From IMG/VR virus record IMGVR_UViG_3300033068_001467, positions 1 through 64,000 of that record: 64,000 bases of DNA; one strand, 5' to 3'. A program made the translations under genes and the position numbers. The notes under the pieces were generated by a model. The model saw only the letters and a program-made list of their open reading frames with translations. It had not been told where the DNA came from and did not search any database. Shown piece by piece: positions 11,817 through 64,000 of the stretch; position 1 is the first letter of the stretch; each line of letters starts with the position of its first letter. This DNA comes from a virus (taxonomy: Duplodnaviria > Caudoviricetes).

Positions 11817-11984
11817 ATGAATTGGACAGAAGAAGAAAAACAAAAAATGCTAAACTTTGCAGAGGCATCAGACCACGAAAGAAACGACGATATGTTTGAT
11901 TATATTTCTAGTATGATGTTAGAAAATGGTTTTGTGAGAACACCATCACAAATAAAATCAATGTATTATAAACTAACAAAGTAA
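11817..11984 (+). CDS. Small Myb/SANT-like protein
   Basis: MNWTEEEKQKML...RTPSQIKSMYYKL. Confidence 0.5.
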   Translation: MNWTEEEKQKMLNFAEASDHERNDDMFDYISSMMLENGFVRTPSQIKSMYYKLTK

Positions 11985-12934
11985 TGACAGAAACACAAAT
12001 TAAAGAATACTTAAACAAATACAGCTTAACTACAAAAGAAAAGTTAGCAGAACATATAGAACAACTAAAAAGAAATACTAATCTTAATTTAGAACTTATT
12101 AGTGAGTTAGCTTTTGTTTTAGCTGATGAAGAAAATCTGTTTTTTAATGTTTTTGGCGGGCAAAGCCCTTTAATGAAGTGCGGCGAAAAGTGGACTCCTG
12201 ATTATGTTACAACTTTACATGCTGATAAAATTAAAAGATTTGGATTATTAGAATTAGAACCAAAAATAGTTGGAGATTTAGAAGGTATAAATAAACCACC
12301 ACAAAGAACAGTTTCTTCACACTTTTTAGATGAAGTTTTAGAACAGACAAATCCGATGGGAAAAGAAAATACTTTATCGTATCAAACTTATTACCAAGCT
12401 GTTTTAACTAAGCCTGCCTCAAATTGGAATAAACTTGAAATAACTTTTTCAGATAGTGACATAAATAAACTTGAAGAGACGACTATTTCTGATATTATGC
12501 ATCTTTTTAATAATAGTTCTTCCGCAAAAGAAATTAAAACAGAAGAAACTAAAGGTCACAGCACTAGTTTAAAAGCTAATACACCTATGAAAGAAGATTT
12601 AGTATTTACAGAAGATACAGAATTAGGTAAAAAAACAAATAAAAATAAACCTCAGATTTCACTTTTATTTAAACAATTTCCTAAAGCTTTGGAGGCAATT
12701 GCAAAATGCTCAGAATATGGGCACGAAAAGTATAAAGAAACCGATTTTGATTATCTAAATTATACAAGAGTTGAAGGAGGAAGTAAGACATACGCAGATG
12801 CTGGATTACGCCATAGATTAGAACAAGGTAGTGACTTAGAAAGCAAATTACCACATCAATACCATATTGCTTGGAATGCCTTAGCAGAACTTCAATTGTG
12901 GATAGAAGAAAACGAACTTAAAAATAATAATTAA
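11984..12934 (+). CDS. Unknown N-terminal region fused to a dATP/dGTP diphosphohydrolase (DUF5664) domain
   Basis: GKKTNKNKPQISLL...ALEAIAKCSEYGHEKY...NY...YADAGLRH...DLESKLPHQYHIAWNALA. Confidence 0.8.
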   Translation: MTETQIKEYLNKYSLTTKEKLAEHIEQLKRNTNLNLELISELAFVLADEENLFFNVFGGQSPLMKCGEKWTPDYVTTLHADKIKRFGLLELEPKIVGDLEGINKPPQRTVSSHFLDEVLEQTNPMGKENTLSYQTYYQAVLTKPASNWNKLEITFSDSDINKLEETTISDIMHLFNNSSSAKEIKTEETKGHSTSLKANTPMKEDLVFTEDTELGKKTNKNKPQISLLFKQFPKALEAIAKCSEYGHEKYKETDFDYLNYTRVEGGSKTYADAGLRHRLEQGSDLESKLPHQYHIAWNALAELQLWIEENELKNNN

Positions 12935-13428
12935 TGCAGATACTAAATTTAACAGCAATATCAACAGTACCAAATGAAGAGGGTGAAGCTTTAATCGATA
13001 AAGCTATGAAACCAACTAAAAAAGATAAAGACCCTAATAAACTTTCAAAAGAGTGGTTTCGTGAACAAGGATTAGTACCACCTGACGATGCAGAAGACGA
13101 TGAGCCGAGTTTAGATGAAGACGGAATGATTCATTTAAAAGAAGAACATTTACAAGAGATAGCCTTAGATTTATCAATACCTTTAAAAAATATTGACAGT
13201 TATGTTGAATCTTCTGACCACGGAACTTTAATTTATACCAAGAGTGGTATTCAATATCACGTAGTTGAAGAAACTTTTGAGATTGACTCTTATATTGAGT
13301 ATATTACTATGGGTTGGTTTAAGAGAAATAAAATACTGTTTTTTAACTTTTTTCGCCGAATTAAATACAAATTACAAGGAAAGAAAGTTGTAAACTTACA
13401 AGAAATTTTAGACAGACCTGAAAATTAA
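12934..13428 (+). CDS. Hypothetical acidic protein
   Basis: ORF track, coupled to upstream gene. Confidence 0.6.
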   Translation: MQILNLTAISTVPNEEGEALIDKAMKPTKKDKDPNKLSKEWFREQGLVPPDDAEDDEPSLDEDGMIHLKEEHLQEIALDLSIPLKNIDSYVESSDHGTLIYTKSGIQYHVVEETFEIDSYIEYITMGWFKRNKILFFNFFRRIKYKLQGKKVVNLQEILDRPEN

Positions 13429-13448
13429 CAAAACTTTAACATAAAATA

Positions 13449-13480
13449 TTTGCAGAGTGCTTAAAATATGAGTATCTTTG
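13449..13480 (+). promoter_or_regulatory. Bacteroidota-type promoter
   Basis: TTTG 13449, TATCTTTG 13473-13480. Confidence 0.75.
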
Positions 13481-13517
13481 TAAGATAAATAACAAATTAA
13501 ATAAAACAAAAGTAGAA

Positions 13518-14285
13518 ATGGCGGCAGAAACAATGCAACAAGGAAGCGGAAGAAAAAACTATTATGGGGTTAGTTATGGAAAACTATCAACAAGAGTGAA
13601 AGAAATTCCACAAGATTACACAGAAATTACAGAAGCTGATTTAAAATCAAAAACACAGGCTGTTGAACAAATTGATTTAAGAAAAAAATATGTAGATAAG
13701 GCAAAAGGAGATTATCCTTATGTAGTTTTCTATGACAGCTTAACAGGAAATATTGTAGCTCAAGAAAAATTTGAGAATGATAATGGTACAAACTTAAATC
13801 TTACTATTCTTGATAAAGATGGAGATGAAAGTATTTTGCAGTTGAAATTTTATTCAAAATACAGTGAAAATCTTCTAAACAGGTTACTAAATACTGAAAC
13901 ATCTAATACAATGACTTTCTTTCCTTACTCAATTCCAAATTCAGCGGAGATAGATGGACAATCAAAAACATTTTATACTTCAGGAGTATCTGTAAAAGTG
14001 GATGGTAATAAAGTAGAGCCAAAGTGGAAAGATAAGAGAACTGACCCAAAATCAGAGTTACCTGATACAGCACAAGTAAAAGTGCAAGGTAAAATGACTA
14101 CAAGTAGAGACGAAAGAATTGATTTTCTTTATGATTCTTTCGTAGCACATTTTAAACCTAGTATATCTGCACCAAAAACAGAAATACCAAAAAATGCAAT
14201 TCCTAAAGGTAGTCCAGCAGAAGCATTTGCACCTGCTACAAACTATATCCCTAATAATCCTGATATAGACAATTTACCATTTTAG
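13518..14285 (+). CDS. Putative single-stranded DNA-binding protein
   Basis: Beta-rich core, Pro-rich linker, acidic C-terminal tail DIDNLPF. Confidence 0.55.
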   Translation: MAAETMQQGSGRKNYYGVSYGKLSTRVKEIPQDYTEITEADLKSKTQAVEQIDLRKKYVDKAKGDYPYVVFYDSLTGNIVAQEKFENDNGTNLNLTILDKDGDESILQLKFYSKYSENLLNRLLNTETSNTMTFFPYSIPNSAEIDGQSKTFYTSGVSVKVDGNKVEPKWKDKRTDPKSELPDTAQVKVQGKMTTSRDERIDFLYDSFVAHFKPSISAPKTEIPKNAIPKGSPAEAFAPATNYIPNNPDIDNLPF

Positions 14286-16560: not shown

Positions 16561-16716
16561 TTTGTGCATTTAAAATAAAAGTTGTATCTTTGCATTATAA
16601 CAATGGTTTACATCAATAGCGGTGATAGTAAATTTTTGTAATCGGCAGTAAAAGATAAAACAACAGTAAAAAAATTAATAATTAGGCTTACTTAATCCGC
16701 TACTAATGTAAGCCTT
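16561..16716 (+). promoter_or_regulatory. Promoter plus leader tag (TAGCGG) and hairpin whose loop carries CCGCTA
   Basis: TTTG 16561 / TATCTTTG 16585-16592; stem AGGCTTAC/GTAAGCCT. Confidence 0.55.
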
Positions 16717-16828
16717 AACGTTAGTAGCAAGCTTAGCTTAAAATTGACGATTAGAAAAAACTAAACATAAATGAACTTTGAATGTTGTAATAAGGATAGA
16801 ATAGAGTGTTCTAAGTGGTCAAAAAAAC

Positions 16829-17932: not shown

Positions 17933-17940
17933 AGCCGATT

Positions 17941-18071
17941 TGCTAACAGCGGTTTTGCAATAGTGTGGCTTTAGTAATATTTGTAAAATTTCGGGCGAAA
18001 ATAAAAATTAATAATAATCGGCTATCTTTGGTGCTTATTTGCCCACACCATTGCAAAGCCACAAAACGTTA
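17941..18071 (+). repeat. attC-like recombination site (TAACA...ACGTT orientation)
   Basis: GCTAAC-A-GCGGTTTTGCAATAGTGTGG ... CCACACCATTGCAAAGCCAC-AAAAC-GTT; long imperfect inverted arms bounded by AAC and GTT. Confidence 0.75.
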
Positions 18072-18073
18072 AA

Positions 18074-18322
18074 ATGAAACCAATATTTAAACAAACAGAA
18101 GTTGTAGTTTTAGAACCTGAAAAATTAGGAGGAGTAGATTTAGGTTCTTCAGCTAAAGAAATTAAAGCAGTAGTCAAGTACATAGGAAATGAAACTAAAC
18201 TCTATACTGTGGGCGAAACAGTATTCTTTGATGAAGAAAGGTCTAAGAAAAAAACAATAGAGGGAGAGAAATTAATGATTATTGACGAAAGATACGTCAT
18301 TTGCGAACTAAAAGAGGTGTAA
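18074..18322 (+). CDS. GroES-like co-chaperonin
   Basis: 82 aa; mobile-loop-like KLGGVDLG, AVVKYIG...TVGETVFF...EGEKLMIIDERYVI; first resident gene after groEL once the insert is removed. Confidence 0.7.
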   Translation: MKPIFKQTEVVVLEPEKLGGVDLGSSAKEIKAVVKYIGNETKLYTVGETVFFDEERSKKKTIEGEKLMIIDERYVICELKEV

Positions 18323-38520: not shown

Positions 38521-39927
38521 ATGGAAAACAAAAGGAAATGTAACGCGTGTTTAGAAGAGAAAGAATTATGTGAATTTGGCAAGGATTCTAGTAAAAAAGG
38601 TGGGTATGATAACAAGTGTAAAAAATGTAAAGTCAATAAATATCCGTCCATAAAAATAAAAGAGCCCTTGGGTGTTATTTTTAAATGTAAAGCTTGTCTT
38701 GAAAACAAAGATGCTACTCTTTTTTACAAAAATAAAGCTTTTAAAAATGGATATAACACTAGATGTATTGATTGTATAAAAAATAATGTATATAAAACAA
38801 TAGAAATAAAAAAAGAGACTAAAAAATGTAATAGCTGTTTCTTAGATAAAAGCCTTAGTTATTTTAGTAAAAATTCAGGATTAGAAAGTTATAGGTCACA
38901 ATGTAATGCTTGTAAAAATAAAGGCATAAAAGTACCAAAAAAAGAAATTACTATAAGTGAATATAAAATATGTAATGAGTGTAATTTAGAAAAACATGTA
39001 GAAGAGTTTCATAAAACTAAGAAAAGGGATGGTTCAAACACAACAGCAGGTTTTTGTAAAAAATGTTTTAACTTTAAACAAAATAAACAAATAGAGTGTT
39101 TAAAATGTAAAGAATTAAAGACTAAATATTGTTTTGAAAAAGGTTCGACTACGTGTAAAAAATGTAACAAAGTTACAAAAGAAAAGGTTAAAAAAGAGAA
39201 GGATGTTATTCTTAAATTTTTACAATGTGTTGGTTGTAACATTACTAAGCCTATAAAAGATTTTACAAAAGATAAATCTTCTAAATTAGAAGCAAAAAGT
39301 TTATGTAAAGATTGTAGCAATGTCAAACGGTACGAAAAGTCAAAGAAAAAGGAAGTATTTAGTGCTAATGAAAAAAGATGCTCAAAATGTAGTATTATAA
39401 AACCTTTGACAGAGTATTGTAGAGACAGAGATAAATTTAGAGCAGAGTGTAAAGATTGTAAAAAAGAATATAATAAAAGAACAAAAGATTTAGCAAGAGA
39501 ATCATCAAGAAAAAGAGCAAGAAAAAAGTCAAAGACAGACAGTTTATATAGATTAAGTAATAACGTGAGAGGGTTAATACATCAAGCAATAAAGAAAAAT
39601 AAAAATATTAAAAGGAAAAACACTCAAACTATAGTGGGGTGTACTTGGGAAGAGTTTAAAAACCACATTGAATCTCAATTTGAAAGTTGGATGAATTGGG
39701 ATAACTATGGTAATGTTTGTGGGAATTATCCCGAGTATAATTGTTCTTGGGATTTAGACCACATTATTCCTATAAATTATGCAAAAACAGAGGAAGAGAT
39801 ATATTTATTGAATCATTGGAGTAATTTCCAACCACTTTGTTCAAAAGTTAATAGATGGGAGAAAAAGGGCACATTGTACCCTTGTTGTAATATTGAGTTA
39901 AATATAACTGTAATATTGGAAAAATAA
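38521..39927 (+). CDS. HNH-type homing endonuclease with seven tandem CxxC...CxxC modules
   Basis: Repeats of C..C...K....F.K........C..C; C-terminal WMNWDNYG...WDLDHIIP...HWSNFQPL. Confidence 0.8.
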   Translation: MENKRKCNACLEEKELCEFGKDSSKKGGYDNKCKKCKVNKYPSIKIKEPLGVIFKCKACLENKDATLFYKNKAFKNGYNTRCIDCIKNNVYKTIEIKKETKKCNSCFLDKSLSYFSKNSGLESYRSQCNACKNKGIKVPKKEITISEYKICNECNLEKHVEEFHKTKKRDGSNTTAGFCKKCFNFKQNKQIECLKCKELKTKYCFEKGSTTCKKCNKVTKEKVKKEKDVILKFLQCVGCNITKPIKDFTKDKSSKLEAKSLCKDCSNVKRYEKSKKKEVFSANEKRCSKCSIIKPLTEYCRDRDKFRAECKDCKKEYNKRTKDLARESSRKRARKKSKTDSLYRLSNNVRGLIHQAIKKNKNIKRKNTQTIVGCTWEEFKNHIESQFESWMNWDNYGNVCGNYPEYNCSWDLDHIIPINYAKTEEEIYLLNHWSNFQPLCSKVNRWEKKGTLYPCCNIELNITVILEK

Positions 39928-40880
39928 AAAATTAAAATAATTGTTGCGTAATTCAATAATAATCAATACATTTGCAAAATGAAACTAGAACAAAAAAACC
40001 AAATAGAACACTATTTATTAATGGCAGTTAAGAGATGTACTGAATTCGATGAACAAAATGACATAGCTTTAAAAGCTTATTGGAAGGGTCAAGTTTATGG
40101 AGTTATAAAAATGATACACGTACTTGAATTAAATATTGATGACATATATTGGTTAAATCAACTACCATGATAGAGCTTCAAAAAATAGACTGTAATTGTA
40201 ATGATTGTATATTTATGGTTAGAGATATGGAGAAGTTTAAATTATCACTTAAAACGCATGAAAAGTGGCAATTAGACTATTTCAACGTAACTAAAGCTAA
40301 TCTTAAAAAACGCGCCGAAGAAAGAAAACTAAAAGGAGAAACAGAAAAAGCTAATAACATACTAAAAGAGATTAGTAAAATGCGTTTTCAATTTGATAAA
40401 AGTACTTGCTCTATTAACTATGGAAATTGTACTAAGTTAAATAAATCTGTCTCTTTCATACCTAATATATTGCAAATTGAGACGCAACATTGTTTTAAAC
40501 ACCGAAGAGAACTATGAAAACAATTCAAGACTATCAAAAACGGCACAATCACATAAAAAACTATTGTGAAAAAATGATTACTAAGTTTACAAGAACTTTA
40601 GAAGAACATCCTAATAGTTTTGATGCGCAAATTAAAAGAAAAGCATATCAGGATATTTTATATAAATTAGACTATGAAAATCTCGGCAATAAAAACTGAA
40701 AAGGAAAAAATAGAAATACAAACAAACAAAGGAAATATAATTCTAAGAAAGTTTGGTAAAGACTATATATCACAAACAGATATTCCTTATGGTTTTTCTA
40801 AAGAGAGTAAGTTATATTTACAGATAAAGAAATGTTTAATAGCAGGAGAATCTTTAGAGCAGTTTATAGGTTGCTGTTTT

Positions 40881-41016
40881 TAACGTTTTGCGGCTATACG
40901 AGGTTGTTGCCGAATTAAAAACAGACCTCATAAACATAAACTAAATTTTAAAATTATGACTGAACTTTCAAAAAATGCCGAATTGCAACAATCTTGTATA
41001 ACCGCTGTTATAAGCC
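40881..41016 (-). repeat. attC-like site (TAACGT...TGTTA on +, i.e. inverted relative to the gene)
   Basis: TAAC-GTTTT-GCGGCTATACGAGGTTGTTGC ... GCAACAATCTTGTATAACCGC-T-GTTATAAGCC; arms match at 18 of 21. Confidence 0.8.
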
Positions 41017-41240
41017 GTTTTTCTAACACAATTGAATTATGGTTAAAAAGCGATATTAACGGAAATTGGATAAGGAACGAAAAAAACACAAATACGTTTA
41101 CCGACATTAAAGGCGGTAGAGCTTTGTATGTTTATGAAGACTGCATTAAGTATTGGGATGATATTAGACAACATTCTGGAGTTTGTGAATATATGATTCC
41201 AACTTCAAAAATAGAGTTGTTTGATATACTCGGTGGTTAA
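40956..41240 (+). CDS. Cassette gene, hypothetical protein
   Basis: Starts inside the attC loop; bracketed by GTTATAAGCC (41007-41016) and GGCTTATAAC (41244-41253). Confidence 0.7.
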   Translation: MTELSKNAELQQSCITAVISRFSNTIELWLKSDINGNWIRNEKNTNTFTDIKGGRALYVYEDCIKYWDDIRQHSGVCEYMIPTSKIELFDILGG

Positions 41241-41243
41241 AAT

Positions 41244-41305
41244 GGCTTATAACTCCTATATATAAACAACCAATATAAACACTAATAAAATCAATACTAT
41301 AAGCC
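41244..41305. promoter_or_regulatory. Candidate attI-like site abutting the integrase start
   Basis: GGCTTATAAC ... TATAAGCC-ATG short inverted repeat, with no long attC arms. Confidence 0.4.
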
Positions 41306-42136
41306 ATGAACATTCGAAAATACATAGACGACTATTCGAGAGATATAGAATTAGTTTATAACTCTAAAGCAACAAAAAATAATTATAAAAGCCAAATATG
41401 GTGTTTTTTAAATCACTTTAAAAATGAAGTTGAACCAAAATCAATAACAAATGCTAAAATAAAAGACTGGTTATTAGAGGCTAAAACTATAAACACAAGA
41501 AAACATAGACTTTGTGCTTTGAATTCTTTTTATAAAATTACAATTGGTATGCCTTCTAAAATTCAGAAAATACCTTATCCTAAATCTGAAAAGAAATTAC
41601 CAATAGTACTAAGTCAAGAGGAGGTTCAAAAAATGTTTGATGTGTGCGAAAATACTAAACATAAGGTTATTTTAGCTTTACTTTATTCTACTGGAATGCG
41701 AGTTTCGGAATTGATTAATTTGAAGTGGGAACATTTTGATAGGTCAAGAGGAATTATAAACATAATTGGTGGTAAAGGAAATAAGGATAGACAAGTAATG
41801 TTGTCTAATGATTTATATCCATTACTAGAAAAATATTGGAAAGAGTATAGGTCTTTTCCTTATGTTTTGAAAGGTCGGTTTTCGGAGCATTATTCGGATA
41901 GAAGTGTTGGTCAAGTGATGAAACAATTAGCAAAAAAAGCAGGAATAAGTAAAAGAGTTTACACTCATTTGATGCGTCATAATTGTTTTACACATTTAGT
42001 AGAAAATGGTATTGATATTAATTTAATACAAAAACTAGCAGGTCATTCAAACGTTAAAACAACTTTGGTTTACACACATATATCACACAACTTAATAAGT
42101 AAAATAAGGTCACCTTTAAATTTAATAAAATTATGA
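41306..42136 (+). CDS. Tyrosine recombinase (XerD / integron-integrase-like)
   Basis: KKLPIVLSQEEV, LYSTGMRVSEL, GKGNKDR, HLMRH, LAGHSNVKTTLVY; full R-K-H-R-H-Y catalytic set. It lacks the IntI-specific insertion. Confidence 0.92.
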   Translation: MNIRKYIDDYSRDIELVYNSKATKNNYKSQIWCFLNHFKNEVEPKSITNAKIKDWLLEAKTINTRKHRLCALNSFYKITIGMPSKIQKIPYPKSEKKLPIVLSQEEVQKMFDVCENTKHKVILALLYSTGMRVSELINLKWEHFDRSRGIINIIGGKGNKDRQVMLSNDLYPLLEKYWKEYRSFPYVLKGRFSEHYSDRSVGQVMKQLAKKAGISKRVYTHLMRHNCFTHLVENGIDINLIQKLAGHSNVKTTLVYTHISHNLISKIRSPLNLIKL

Positions 42137-62452: not shown

Positions 62453-62484
62453 AAACATGATAAAAATATTCGTAAGCTATCATA

Positions 62485-62538
62485 TAACGTTAAGGTGCTT
62501 TGCGCTCGTTTTAATGGCGCAAAACACGTGTTACCTGC
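62485..62538 (-). repeat. Short attC-like site
   Basis: TAAC-GTTAAG-GTGCTTTGCGC-N11-GCGCAAAACAC-GT-GTTACCTGC. Confidence 0.8.
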
Positions 62539-62596
62539 TGGTGCGGTTAATTAACGAGAAATTTAAATTGAAATACTAAACAAAAAAATATTAAAA

Positions 62597-63478
62597 ATGA
62601 GCGTAGGCAAAAAAGAAAAAATTAACGTATTATCACTATTTGATGGTATGAGTTGTGGACAAATAGCTTTAAATAAAGTAGGAATTGAGTATGAAAATTA
62701 CTTTGCTTCTGAAATAGAACAAGCACCTATAAAAGTTACGCAACATAATTACCCTAATACTATACAATTAGGTAGTGTTATTGATGTAAAAGGAGTTGAT
62801 TTACCAAAAATAGATTTAATGTTTGGTGGAAGTCCTTGCCAATCATTTTCAAACGCTGGTAAAGGAGAAGGATTTGATGGAAAAAGTGGGTTGTTTTGGG
62901 AATATGTAAGAATATTGAAAGAGGTAAATCCAACTTACTTTTTACTTGAAAATGTAAAGATGAAGAAAGAATGGAAAGATATTATTTCTAAAGAATTAGG
63001 TGTTGAGCCTATCGAAATAAATAGTTCTTTACTATCTGCTCAAAATAGACCAAGATTATATTGGACAAATATTCCAAATGTTGATATTCCAAAAGATAAA
63101 GGGCTTTTATTTAAAGATGTATTAAATAGTGATTATGAATTTAAACCTTTAACAAAATGGTTTTTTTCTAAATGGGGAGATAAACAAAAAATTGATACTT
63201 TAAAAACAATTGAAGCTGAAAAATCATTTTGTTTAACAACAAATAAAAGCCATTCAAAAAACTATTACTTAACACCTGATAAAACTATGGCTCGTATGCT
63301 TGAAAGAGATGAAGTAGAAAGATTGCAAACTATCCCTAACGGATATACAAATATTGTTTCAAAAACAGATGCACATAAAATGATTGGGAATGGATGGACG
63401 GTAGATGTAATTGCTCATATTTTTTCTTCTTTAAAGGAGGGGGAAATTTTTAATAATTTTTCTAACGAAAATGTTTAA
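62597..63478 (+). CDS. DNA cytosine-5 methyltransferase carried as a gene cassette
   Basis: VLSLFDGMSCG, GGSPCQ, LLENV, QNRPRLYW, IGNGW; bracketed by GTTACCTGC (62530-62538) and GCAGGTAAC (63501-63509). Confidence 0.92.
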   Translation: MSVGKKEKINVLSLFDGMSCGQIALNKVGIEYENYFASEIEQAPIKVTQHNYPNTIQLGSVIDVKGVDLPKIDLMFGGSPCQSFSNAGKGEGFDGKSGLFWEYVRILKEVNPTYFLLENVKMKKEWKDIISKELGVEPIEINSSLLSAQNRPRLYWTNIPNVDIPKDKGLLFKDVLNSDYEFKPLTKWFFSKWGDKQKIDTLKTIEAEKSFCLTTNKSHSKNYYLTPDKTMARMLERDEVERLQTIPNGYTNIVSKTDAHKMIGNGWTVDVIAHIFSSLKEGEIFNNFSNENV

Positions 63479-63500
63479 TAGAAGAGCGAATGAAGCACTT

Positions 63501-63638
63501 GCAGGTAACGTTTCGCAACTTGTGTTAGTTGCGTAAATTAAAAAACAAACTTAACAAAAATTAATTAACATTAAATTTAAAACAATGGAAACAAATAAAA
63601 CACATACTGAGCAATTGACACAAGATGCTGTTATGCAA
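63501..63638 (-). repeat. attC-like site
   Basis: GCAGGTAAC-GTTTC-GCAACTTGTGTTAGTTGC ... GCAATTGACACAAGATGC-T-GTTATGCAA; arms match at 15 of 18. Confidence 0.8.
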
Positions 63639-63995
63639 TCGGTTTTAAAAGCATCTGATTTGAGAGTTGGAAATCTTTTAAACTTATTAGGAGAAATAGT
63701 AAAAGTAGAATGTATTTCTAATGTATTTAAAAGAAAAGATATGTATTGGATTAGCACAGAAGGGTTATTGCCAATGAAAATATTTCATTTTAAACCAATA
63801 CTGCTAACTGAAGAATGGTTAAACAAATTAGGCTACGATTTAATTTCTGAAAATCATTTTGGAGTTTTAGGACATTTGATTTGGAAAATTGAGGGAAGAT
63901 TTTATTGCGATAAAAACGGAGTACAATTAAAATACGTTCATCAACTTCAAAACTTATATTTCGCTTTAACGCAACGTGAGTTAACTGTTGCATAA
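63585..63995 (+). CDS. Cassette gene, conserved Bacteroidota-phage-type protein (LRVGN...LTEEWL...VHQLQNLYF)
   Basis: Starts in the attC loop; its stop TAA is the TAA of the core TTGCATAAC (63988-63996), complementary to GTTATGCAA. Confidence 0.8.
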   Translation: METNKTHTEQLTQDAVMQSVLKASDLRVGNLLNLLGEIVKVECISNVFKRKDMYWISTEGLLPMKIFHFKPILLTEEWLNKLGYDLISENHFGVLGHLIWKIEGRFYCDKNGVQLKYVHQLQNLYFALTQRELTVA

Positions 63996-64000
63996 CGTTC
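63988..64000 (-). repeat. Start of a further attC-like site (array continues past the window)
   Basis: TTGCATAACGTTC has the same TAACGTT junction as the other sites. Confidence 0.65.

Follow-up and report, generated by a model that had tools for sequence, protein, structure and literature searches.

A probable integron-like gene-cassette platform with a Xer-type recombinase in a Flavobacteriia phage genome

Integrons are regarded as bacterial systems that depend on the integrase IntI. According to IntegronFinder 2.0, they are nearly absent from Bacteroidetes (PMC9024848), and the insertion specific to IntI has been reported to be essential for integron function (PMC8138268). In 2023, Qi et al. 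described 17 phage genomes with predicted attC sites that form clusters of 2-4 and have no integrase (CALINs). Five of the six TAAC...GTTA phage sites tested in that study were recombined by IntI1 in vivo, the Polaribacter phage site P12002L_attC1 was not, and phage sites were read as integron parts recombinable by bacterial IntI (PMC9892861). In T4-type phages, small accessory genes in hyperplastic regions lie between repeated stem-loops (PeSLs), which are promoter-terminator motifs exchanged by homologous recombination (PMC2839356, PMC4122927). Here, a locus is described that occupies positions 40881-42136 of the first 64,000 nucleotides (the window) of the Caudoviricetes record IMGVR_UViG_3300033068_001467, where a hairpin site, a small gene and a Xer-type recombinase gene follow one another. 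The comparisons made here indicate that Flavobacteriia phages probably possess an integron-like, site-specific system of gene cassettes, of which this locus is a minimal platform. All results are computational and were obtained by sequence comparison, folding and profile models. The locus comprises the following features:

40674-40883, plus strand: resident open reading frame (ORF) of 69 amino acids, which flanks the platform on the left and shares the TAA of its stop codon (40881-40883) with TAAC (40881-40884)
40881-41010, plus strand: attC-like hairpin site, composed of TAAC, an unpaired GTTTT spacer, a long imperfect stem, an A-rich loop with an ATG at 40956, and T-GTTA
40884-41252, plus strand: putative mobile cassette unit, hairpin and body, 369 bp, assuming a crossover between A and C of TAAC
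40956-41240, plus strand: cassette ORF, 94 amino acids, with its start codon in the hairpin loop
41007-41016, plus strand: R' box GTTATAAGCC, which opens the cassette body
41244-41253, plus strand: R'' box GGCTTATAAC, which closes the cassette body; terminal TAAC of the array
41254-41305, plus strand: putative simple site of the attI-like kind, 52 nt, which also forms the leader of the recombinase gene; the region is conserved in 25 loci
41306-42136, plus strand: Xer-type tyrosine recombinase, 276 amino acids, catalytic residues intact, no IntI insertion

This arrangement shares several traits with integrons, above all with the sedentary chromosomal ones. In both, a tyrosine recombinase gene lies beside a simple site, which is followed by a cassette array; the sites are imperfect hairpins with AAC/GTT cores whose structure is better conserved than their sequence; and the R helix is completed only when a circle joins the cassette ends. 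In addition, a cassette appears to have been re-inserted at the recombinase-proximal end of an array. The attC-like imperfect repeats are present, as is a simple site, which is attI-like by its conservation and by the landing of a cassette at the equivalent terminal site in the cultured phage lillamy9-3 (see below). The system differs from integrons in that there is no integrase of the IntI clade with its insertion. Moreover, the integron cassette consists of an ORF followed by attC and reads away from attI, whereas here the site lies 5' of the gene and the genes run towards the recombinase. Further differences are an R helix of 10 bp with six free but paired positions, the many sites that carry a start codon and approx. 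17 codons fused in frame, the phage location, and the use of both hairpin borders as breakpoints.

The cassettes obey a rule at their ends: a body opens with GTTA and six further nucleotides and closes with the exact reverse complement, six nucleotides and TAAC. In the window, GTTATAAGCC and GGCTTATAAC, which an earlier reading of this DNA from its letters alone (the sequence-only reading) had picked out as exactly complementary cores around the 94-amino-acid gene, are indeed complementary over 10 nt without a mismatch, or over 15 nt if 93% is allowed. Genome-wide, 98 inverted pairs of at least 9 nt (GTT/AAC) were counted against approx. 55 in shuffled sequences; therefore, the search for GTT/AAC pairs is too noisy by itself, and a single 10-nt pair is not rare in an AT-rich genome. 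The geometry of the window goes beyond chance because the same geometry recurs at a fixed place after the ORF stop in 18 of 19 unrelated loci. In particular, when 12 nt were taken from GTT in 19 independent loci and their reverse complement was sought downstream, 18 loci contained a matching stretch of 9-10 nt with (T)AAC at its end, located 0-15 nt past the ORF stop, and the second-best runs reached just 4-7 nt. Given six free positions, the estimated chance of such a match is well under 1% per locus. A site-to-site walk showed that the next hairpin usually starts after the terminal TAAC of a body. Arrays found in this way hold at least 19 cassettes in the 143-kb contig L022, 13-14 in Lillamyvirus isolates, at least 7 in snusmum6-1, 4-5 in contigs L011 and L013, and one in the window, where the 12 nt ending in the first TAAC (40881-40884) have no complementary partner upstream and the array therefore begins there. 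Judged from these comparisons, the window holds a minimal one-cassette platform of a widespread system.

The end rule has a consequence for the folding of the site. When the ends of a cassette are joined as they would be in a circle, the basal R helix is fully paired over 10 bp; for 137 of the 144 cassettes, the site has a lower energy in this form than in the array. For the window, joining the ends shifts the computed energy of the site from -17.4 to -25.8 kcal/mol, which agrees with the earlier proposal that excision restores a fully paired R'/R'' helix. Orientation is equally regular: of 151 cassette ORFs, 148 have the orientation of the recombinase gene and run towards it, and the sites are thus inverted relative to the genes, as had been proposed. 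On the plus strand, the order xxxAA|C, hairpin, GTTxxx, body corresponds to the integron bottom strand, which is here the sense strand of the genes. This strand is also favored by stem counts, with 379 vs 261 G·T pairs and a longer outer stem in 86 vs 41 hairpins.

The hairpin of the window has arms of 21 nt each (40890-40910 and 40985-41005) that are 86% complementary; it is closed by TAAC (40881-40884) and GTTA (41007-41010) and measures 136 bp up to the end of GTTATAAGCC, so that the 136-bp imperfect inverted repeat which the sequence-only reading saw starting at the resident stop TAA(C) is upheld. Folding of both strands, which that reading had proposed, gave -34.8 kcal/mol for the plus strand as RNA (z = -4.6; 0 of 200 shuffles equal it) and -17.4 kcal/mol as DNA (z = -2.5), and a weaker fold for the minus strand. 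Among Flavobacterium phages, 28 records (Muminvirus, Lillamyvirus) contain the element of approx. 130 nt from TAAC to GTTA, as do 24 IMG/VR contigs, with 76-89% identity. Its borders are sharp, in that similarity to the window ends exactly at TAAC and GTTA and nothing else is shared. Two stem variants differ by compensatory changes that keep the pairing and radically alter the encoded leader peptide, which argues for selection on nucleic-acid structure rather than on the peptide. For the same reason, an N-terminal targeting peptide of the T4 capsid-targeting type was ruled out as the nature of the element. The loop ATG is in frame with differing downstream proteins of 66-325 amino acids, an N6/N4 DNA methyltransferase among them, in every one of at least 17 independent contexts. 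A miniature inverted-repeat transposable element with a TA duplication was also ruled out: the element is single-copy in each phage, always forms an in-frame fusion, and is subject to the cassette end rule.

The wider family was catalogued as 147 unique hairpins and 151 unique bodies. Most hairpins are 120-130 nt long, and a second class measures 60-70 nt. Pairing across 83 diverse long hairpins reaches 92.7% of cells, compared with 65% when shuffled and 37-47% when the partner is slid, and double-change cells number 479 vs 137. AACG...TGTT is invariant across the hairpins, two plus-strand G·T wobbles are conserved, and a start codon lies in the A-rich loop of about half of the long hairpins. 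The window hairpin scores 107 bits with a covariance model built here from the family; an Rfam scan of the region gave chance-level matches only and no matching family. By eye, a TAnnTTTT box is located 5 nt before the loop ATG, with no -33 TTTG at the proper spacing for a Bacteroidetes-type promoter. The phage CALINs of Qi et al. resemble this family, since they also place TAAC...GTTA hairpins between phage genes, often those of DNA methyltransferases. In particular, P12002L_attC1 has an 18-nt core in common with the short hairpins, and the methylase cassette of P12002L follows the end rule over 9 nt; a chain-walk along this Polaribacter phage revealed no long array, only this one rule-obeying cassette. 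Their study differs from the present one in that it contains no phage recombinase, attI-like site, large arrays or Flavobacterium phages (PMC9892861).

Several incomplete or isolated forms of the site were also seen. Four contigs (L009, L012, L014 and L016) carry only the right half of the element, that is, loop, ATG, 3' arm and GTTA (e.g., L009:1622-1771, minus strand); unrelated sequence stands in the place of the 5' arm, and these contigs yielded no cassette-end partner. Several hairpins are preceded by a short conserved motif, (A)ACGTAGC(A/T)AT, which belongs to the end of the cassette before them and lies 15-20 nt from their TAAC (L013:4959-4968; L017, L018, L020). On the minus strand of the window, the hairpin model matches at 17937-18078 and 16591-16730 (87 and 61 bits), and these sites bracket approx. 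1.2 kb with small ORFs. They have neither complementary R-box partners nor a recombinase and may be orphan or decayed.

In related genomes, cassettes are gained, lost and moved, and the breakpoints coincide exactly with TAAC, which is what the sequence-only reading had looked to related phages for. The clearest case concerns lillamy9-1 and lillamy9-3, two cultured phages of 38,268 bp each. A unit of 439 nt, hairpin and body, with the R box GTTATAACTC / GAGTTATAAC, lies between cassettes E and G in lillamy9-1 and at the terminal site in lillamy9-3; the moved segment and the flanking array are 100% identical between the two, and the distal block past the terminal site is 98.4% identical. The only sequence common to the three junctions (TTACATAAC|G, GAGTTATAAC|G and GCTTATAAC|T) is ATAAC. 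Phage lillamy9-7 has an offset equal to that of lillamy9-3, and sniff9-1 carries two extra cassettes, one of which encodes a methyltransferase. The body of the window cassette (41004-41253) recurs at 97.6% identity and in the same orientation in the metagenome contig L155, where the hairpin before it and the in-frame leader both differ from those of the window, and where another hairpin follows instead of an attI-like site and recombinase gene. When homologous bodies at different loci are compared, the upstream hairpin is kept and the downstream one differs in 7 cases (and 2 partial ones), and the reverse is found in none. Since the upstream hairpin travels with the body, and the unit moved in lillamy phages consists of hairpin and body, the recent crossover should lie on the TAA|C side, at one of the bases of TAAC.

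These data bear on the possibility that the hairpins are regulatory stem-loops, acting in translation start, RNase processing or termination in the manner of PeSLs, that homologous or illegitimate recombination between them shuffles the cassettes, and that the recombinase is an unrelated neighbor. PeSL cassettes are the nearest phage analogue, as they too involve small accessory genes in hyperplastic regions between repeated stem-loops that are gained and lost as modules (PMC2839356, PMC4122927). In favor of this possibility, the strand that folds is also that of the mRNA, a start codon lies in the loop of about half of the long hairpins, and the main element, at its 76-89% identity between unrelated phages, is similar enough for homologous exchange. 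However, the lillamy junctions share 5 nt only, in contrast to the homology-driven exchange of PeSLs, and most hairpins within one array are too diverged for homologous recombination. The cassette-specific complementarity of 6 nt at the ends has no role under an RNA or a homologous-recombination model, and in 25 loci the distance between the terminal TAAC and the recombinase gene is constant at 51-53 nt. A dedicated recombinase also sets the present system apart from PeSLs. Regulatory stem-loops alone are therefore an improbable account of the locus.

The recombinase supports the alternative of an integron-like platform. All of its catalytic residues align with those of XerA and IntI, and the earlier claim of an intact catalytic recombinase directly behind the 94-amino-acid gene is thus sustained. 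Its placement was derived from model scores and two alignments. The highest score was obtained with the XerA_Arch model (193.5 bits; cut-off 220), followed by XerD (172 bits; cut-off 329.6), the IntI model TIGR02249 (168.9 bits, in two stretches; cut-off 265) and XerC (166.7 bits; cut-off 335). The enzyme is 32% identical to IntI1, and the C-terminal motif RSPL is common to both; in this alignment, 14 and 28 residues of IntI1 are unmatched in the recombinase, which corresponds to the absence of the 42-residue IntI insertion. Likewise, residues 180-240 of the VchIntIA chain (2a3v) stand opposite residues 177-194 of the query. Both alignments confirm the earlier observation that the IntI-specific insertion is lacking, and the best structural-sequence match is XerA (4a8e). 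On the question of a canonical XerD, which had also been raised, the enzyme falls below the XerC and XerD cut-offs and comes nearest to the XerA and IntI models without reaching theirs. Judged by these scores and alignments, it is not an IntI by the defining feature of that family and not a canonical XerC or XerD. It shares the simple two-domain Xer architecture with XerC/XerD-dif and archaeal XerA, but differs in scoring below every curated cut-off, in being always tied to cassette arrays and in occurring as two diverged copies in one phage. No dif-like site was identified.

The second copy belongs to another platform of the same genome:

62478-64000 of the window, continuing to approx. 65783 of the record: second platform, with hairpins at 62478-62540 and 63499-63640 and cassettes at 62530-63509 and 63630-63996

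Its recombinase gene (64971-65783) is located just outside the window, encodes a protein 48% identical to that of the window, and is likewise preceded by TAAC and an attI-like region. The generality of this arrangement was examined with homologues of the window recombinase (39-80% identity) drawn from 5 genome contigs and 29 IMG/VR contigs. Wherever the upstream DNA suffices, the distance from the end of a cassette to the start codon of the recombinase homologue is 51-53 nt, which applies to 25 loci including that of the window; in the few remaining loci, where the walk failed, TAAC is still found at the same position, and four contigs start precisely at the terminal TAAC before the recombinase gene. 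The region from terminal TAAC to ATG is conserved and falls into two sequence families. The window and its closest relatives are homologous at the nucleotide level only in this region and the recombinase gene, from within TAAC onward; the cassettes and outer flanks differ. This pattern suggests that the 51-53-nt region is an attI-like simple site. A perfect inverted repeat of 10 nt (41242-41251 and 41298-41307) adjoins the recombinase ATG at 41306, as the sequence-only reading had noted; it is probably incidental, because TAAGCC before the ATG is also kept in related loci with other cassettes.

A further alternative is that single-stranded circles are moved by another enzyme, such as an HUH transposase of the IS200/IS605 type or a host factor, and inserted 3' of TAAC, with the Xer-type enzyme serving in phage integration or the resolution of dimers. 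A fixed tetranucleotide beside a hairpin, after which insertion takes place, is reminiscent of IS608, and arrays with a recent move occur in phages that lack the recombinase. However, no HUH gene was seen beside the arrays, each unit has one hairpin instead of two end hairpins, the adjacency of recombinase and array is near universal where the recombinase is present, and each of the two platforms in the window genome has its own recombinase. As for a role in phage integration, the temperate-looking contig L011 contains, at 11828-13574, a Xer-type gene followed by a 384-amino-acid integrase on the opposite strand and an HTH repressor-like gene; since this separate integrase with its repressor serves lysogeny, the cassette recombinase and the lysogeny integrase are distinct. 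It is thus unlikely that a different enzyme moves the cassettes throughout.

The 10-bp inverted repeats and the recombinase could also form an invertible switch, like a shufflon or inverton, that toggles the 94-amino-acid gene; the perfect repeat around the body and the adjoining recombinase gene would fit. Shufflons present both orientations, whereas 148 of the 151 ORFs point one way and homologous bodies, the L155 copy included, are always oriented alike; an inverted window cassette would meet a stop after approx. 29 more codons, and the differences between relatives are moves and indels, not inversions, which leaves a switch very unlikely. Equally little speaks for an ordinary phage integrase with the hairpin as its attP or a nearby regulatory site and a coincidental likeness to cassettes, as the Pfam and PHROGs label of phage integrase might suggest, given two copies in one large lytic-type genome and a cassette rule repeated in dozens of loci.

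The IMG/VR record is 87.8 kb long, with an estimated completeness of 61%, and the genes around the locus encode a RecA-like protein, a chaperonin, an RNA ligase, a DnaB-type helicase and exonucleases; these replication genes point to a large lytic-type phage. Upstream of the locus, an ORF of 468 amino acids (38521-39927) has many CxxC pairs and an HNH-like C-terminal end, and no significant Pfam family. In the cassette, the first 17 codons and the GTT codon of the 94-amino-acid ORF are contributed by the hairpin, and the body begins at 41007. The protein has no family in Pfam, PHROGs, NCBIfam or the ESM Atlas, and a homologue search returned three close clusters only and no IMG/VR relatives. 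Among 143 non-redundant cassette proteins, 11 are DNA methyltransferases (6 N6_N4, 3 C5, 1 Dam and 1 UPF0020), three are PAPS-reductase-like, there is one each of thymidylate synthase, HNH and HTH, and the remainder have no Pfam family. This mixture of methyltransferases and many small unannotated proteins suggests a shuffled store of counter-defense and other accessory genes.

Bacterial chromosomes of the Flavobacteriaceae commonly contain related recombinases and hairpin sites. Of 201 genomes sampled from this family, 130 encode a recombinase homologue (E <= 1e-35, 34-43% identity) with approx. 100 extra N-terminal residues. In six Flavobacteriaceae chromosomes, cassettes that meet the end rule follow the recombinase gene, with CAAC/GTTG cores, and three of the six hold 3-6 cassettes. 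The hairpin model matches in 118 of 151 genomes, counted irrespective of array context. In Flavobacteriaceae chromosomes (L110-L134), repeated TATACG...CGTATA-like inverted motifs lie approx. 40-90 nt upstream of the genes for recombinases of 380 amino acids and may be an operator that controls the recombinase.

In the mechanism proposed for the integron-like platform, the neighboring Xer-type recombinase would recognize the site in single-stranded, folded form, probably on the gene-sense strand, cut it at TAA|C, and excise hairpin and body as a circle in which the R helix is fully paired over 10 bp. For the window, the predicted circle measures 369 bp and has the junction GGCTTATAA|CGTTTTGC. 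The circle would then be re-inserted at the simple attI-like site beside the recombinase gene. Exchange on the G|TTA side may be rarer, or proceed via the other strand or within hairpins, and would let hairpins and bodies re-assort. In loops of the window type, the A-rich translation start and approx. 17 codons in phase with GTT would cause any joined body to be expressed as an in-frame fusion.

Several points weigh against this interpretation. The mechanism is inferred from sequence comparison. The recombinase lacks the IntI insertion, so the recognition of a folded strand is an assumption, and the Lillamyvirus and Muminvirus phages, which have arrays and a recent move, encode no homologue of the window recombinase; therefore, cassette movement in these phages must depend on another enzyme or on one provided in trans. 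The identity of the folding strand with the mRNA strand means that RNA functions could explain part of the conservation. The strand preference itself is modest, and whole-hairpin energies show no difference between the strands (p = 0.47). Moreover, one hairpin type precedes at least 17 different bodies, and an identical body is found behind different hairpins (window vs L155; L018 vs L020). Owing to this re-assortment, a single crossover at TAA|C is not the whole story; over longer times, the GTTA side also appears to be a breakpoint, and the hairpin itself to be module-like. Of the original proposal of a single cassette bounded at TAAC, the TAAC breakpoint therefore stands, and it is refined by the larger arrays elsewhere, by the second breakpoint and by the modular hairpin. 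The broader proposal, that of a phage with its own integron-like unit for shuffling cassettes, is consistent with the array rule, the linkage to the recombinase and the TAAC-bounded moves.

A full-text literature search found no description of the system; its enzyme, its polarity, the sites that bear a translation start, and its phage location are new. It is more likely than not that it represents a second lineage of integron-like platforms, built on a Xer-type recombinase without the IntI domain and common to the chromosomes and phages of Flavobacteriaceae, in which the sites double as portable translation starts and phages stock and shuffle genes for DNA modification and counter-defense and may exchange cassettes with their hosts. 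If so, the same integron logic would have evolved, or diverged early, with a simpler recombinase, which bears on how IntI came to recombine folded single strands. Genome engineering could also profit from a small recombinase whose sites are defined by their structure and may have any 6-nt R-box sequence. As cultured Lillamyvirus isolates are already one cassette move apart, experiments are feasible. For phages, the system would offer a testable mechanism for the fast turnover of small accessory genes in "hyperplastic" regions, and the pool of cassette proteins, approx. 85% of them unannotated and found beside methyltransferases, provides candidate counter-defense genes.

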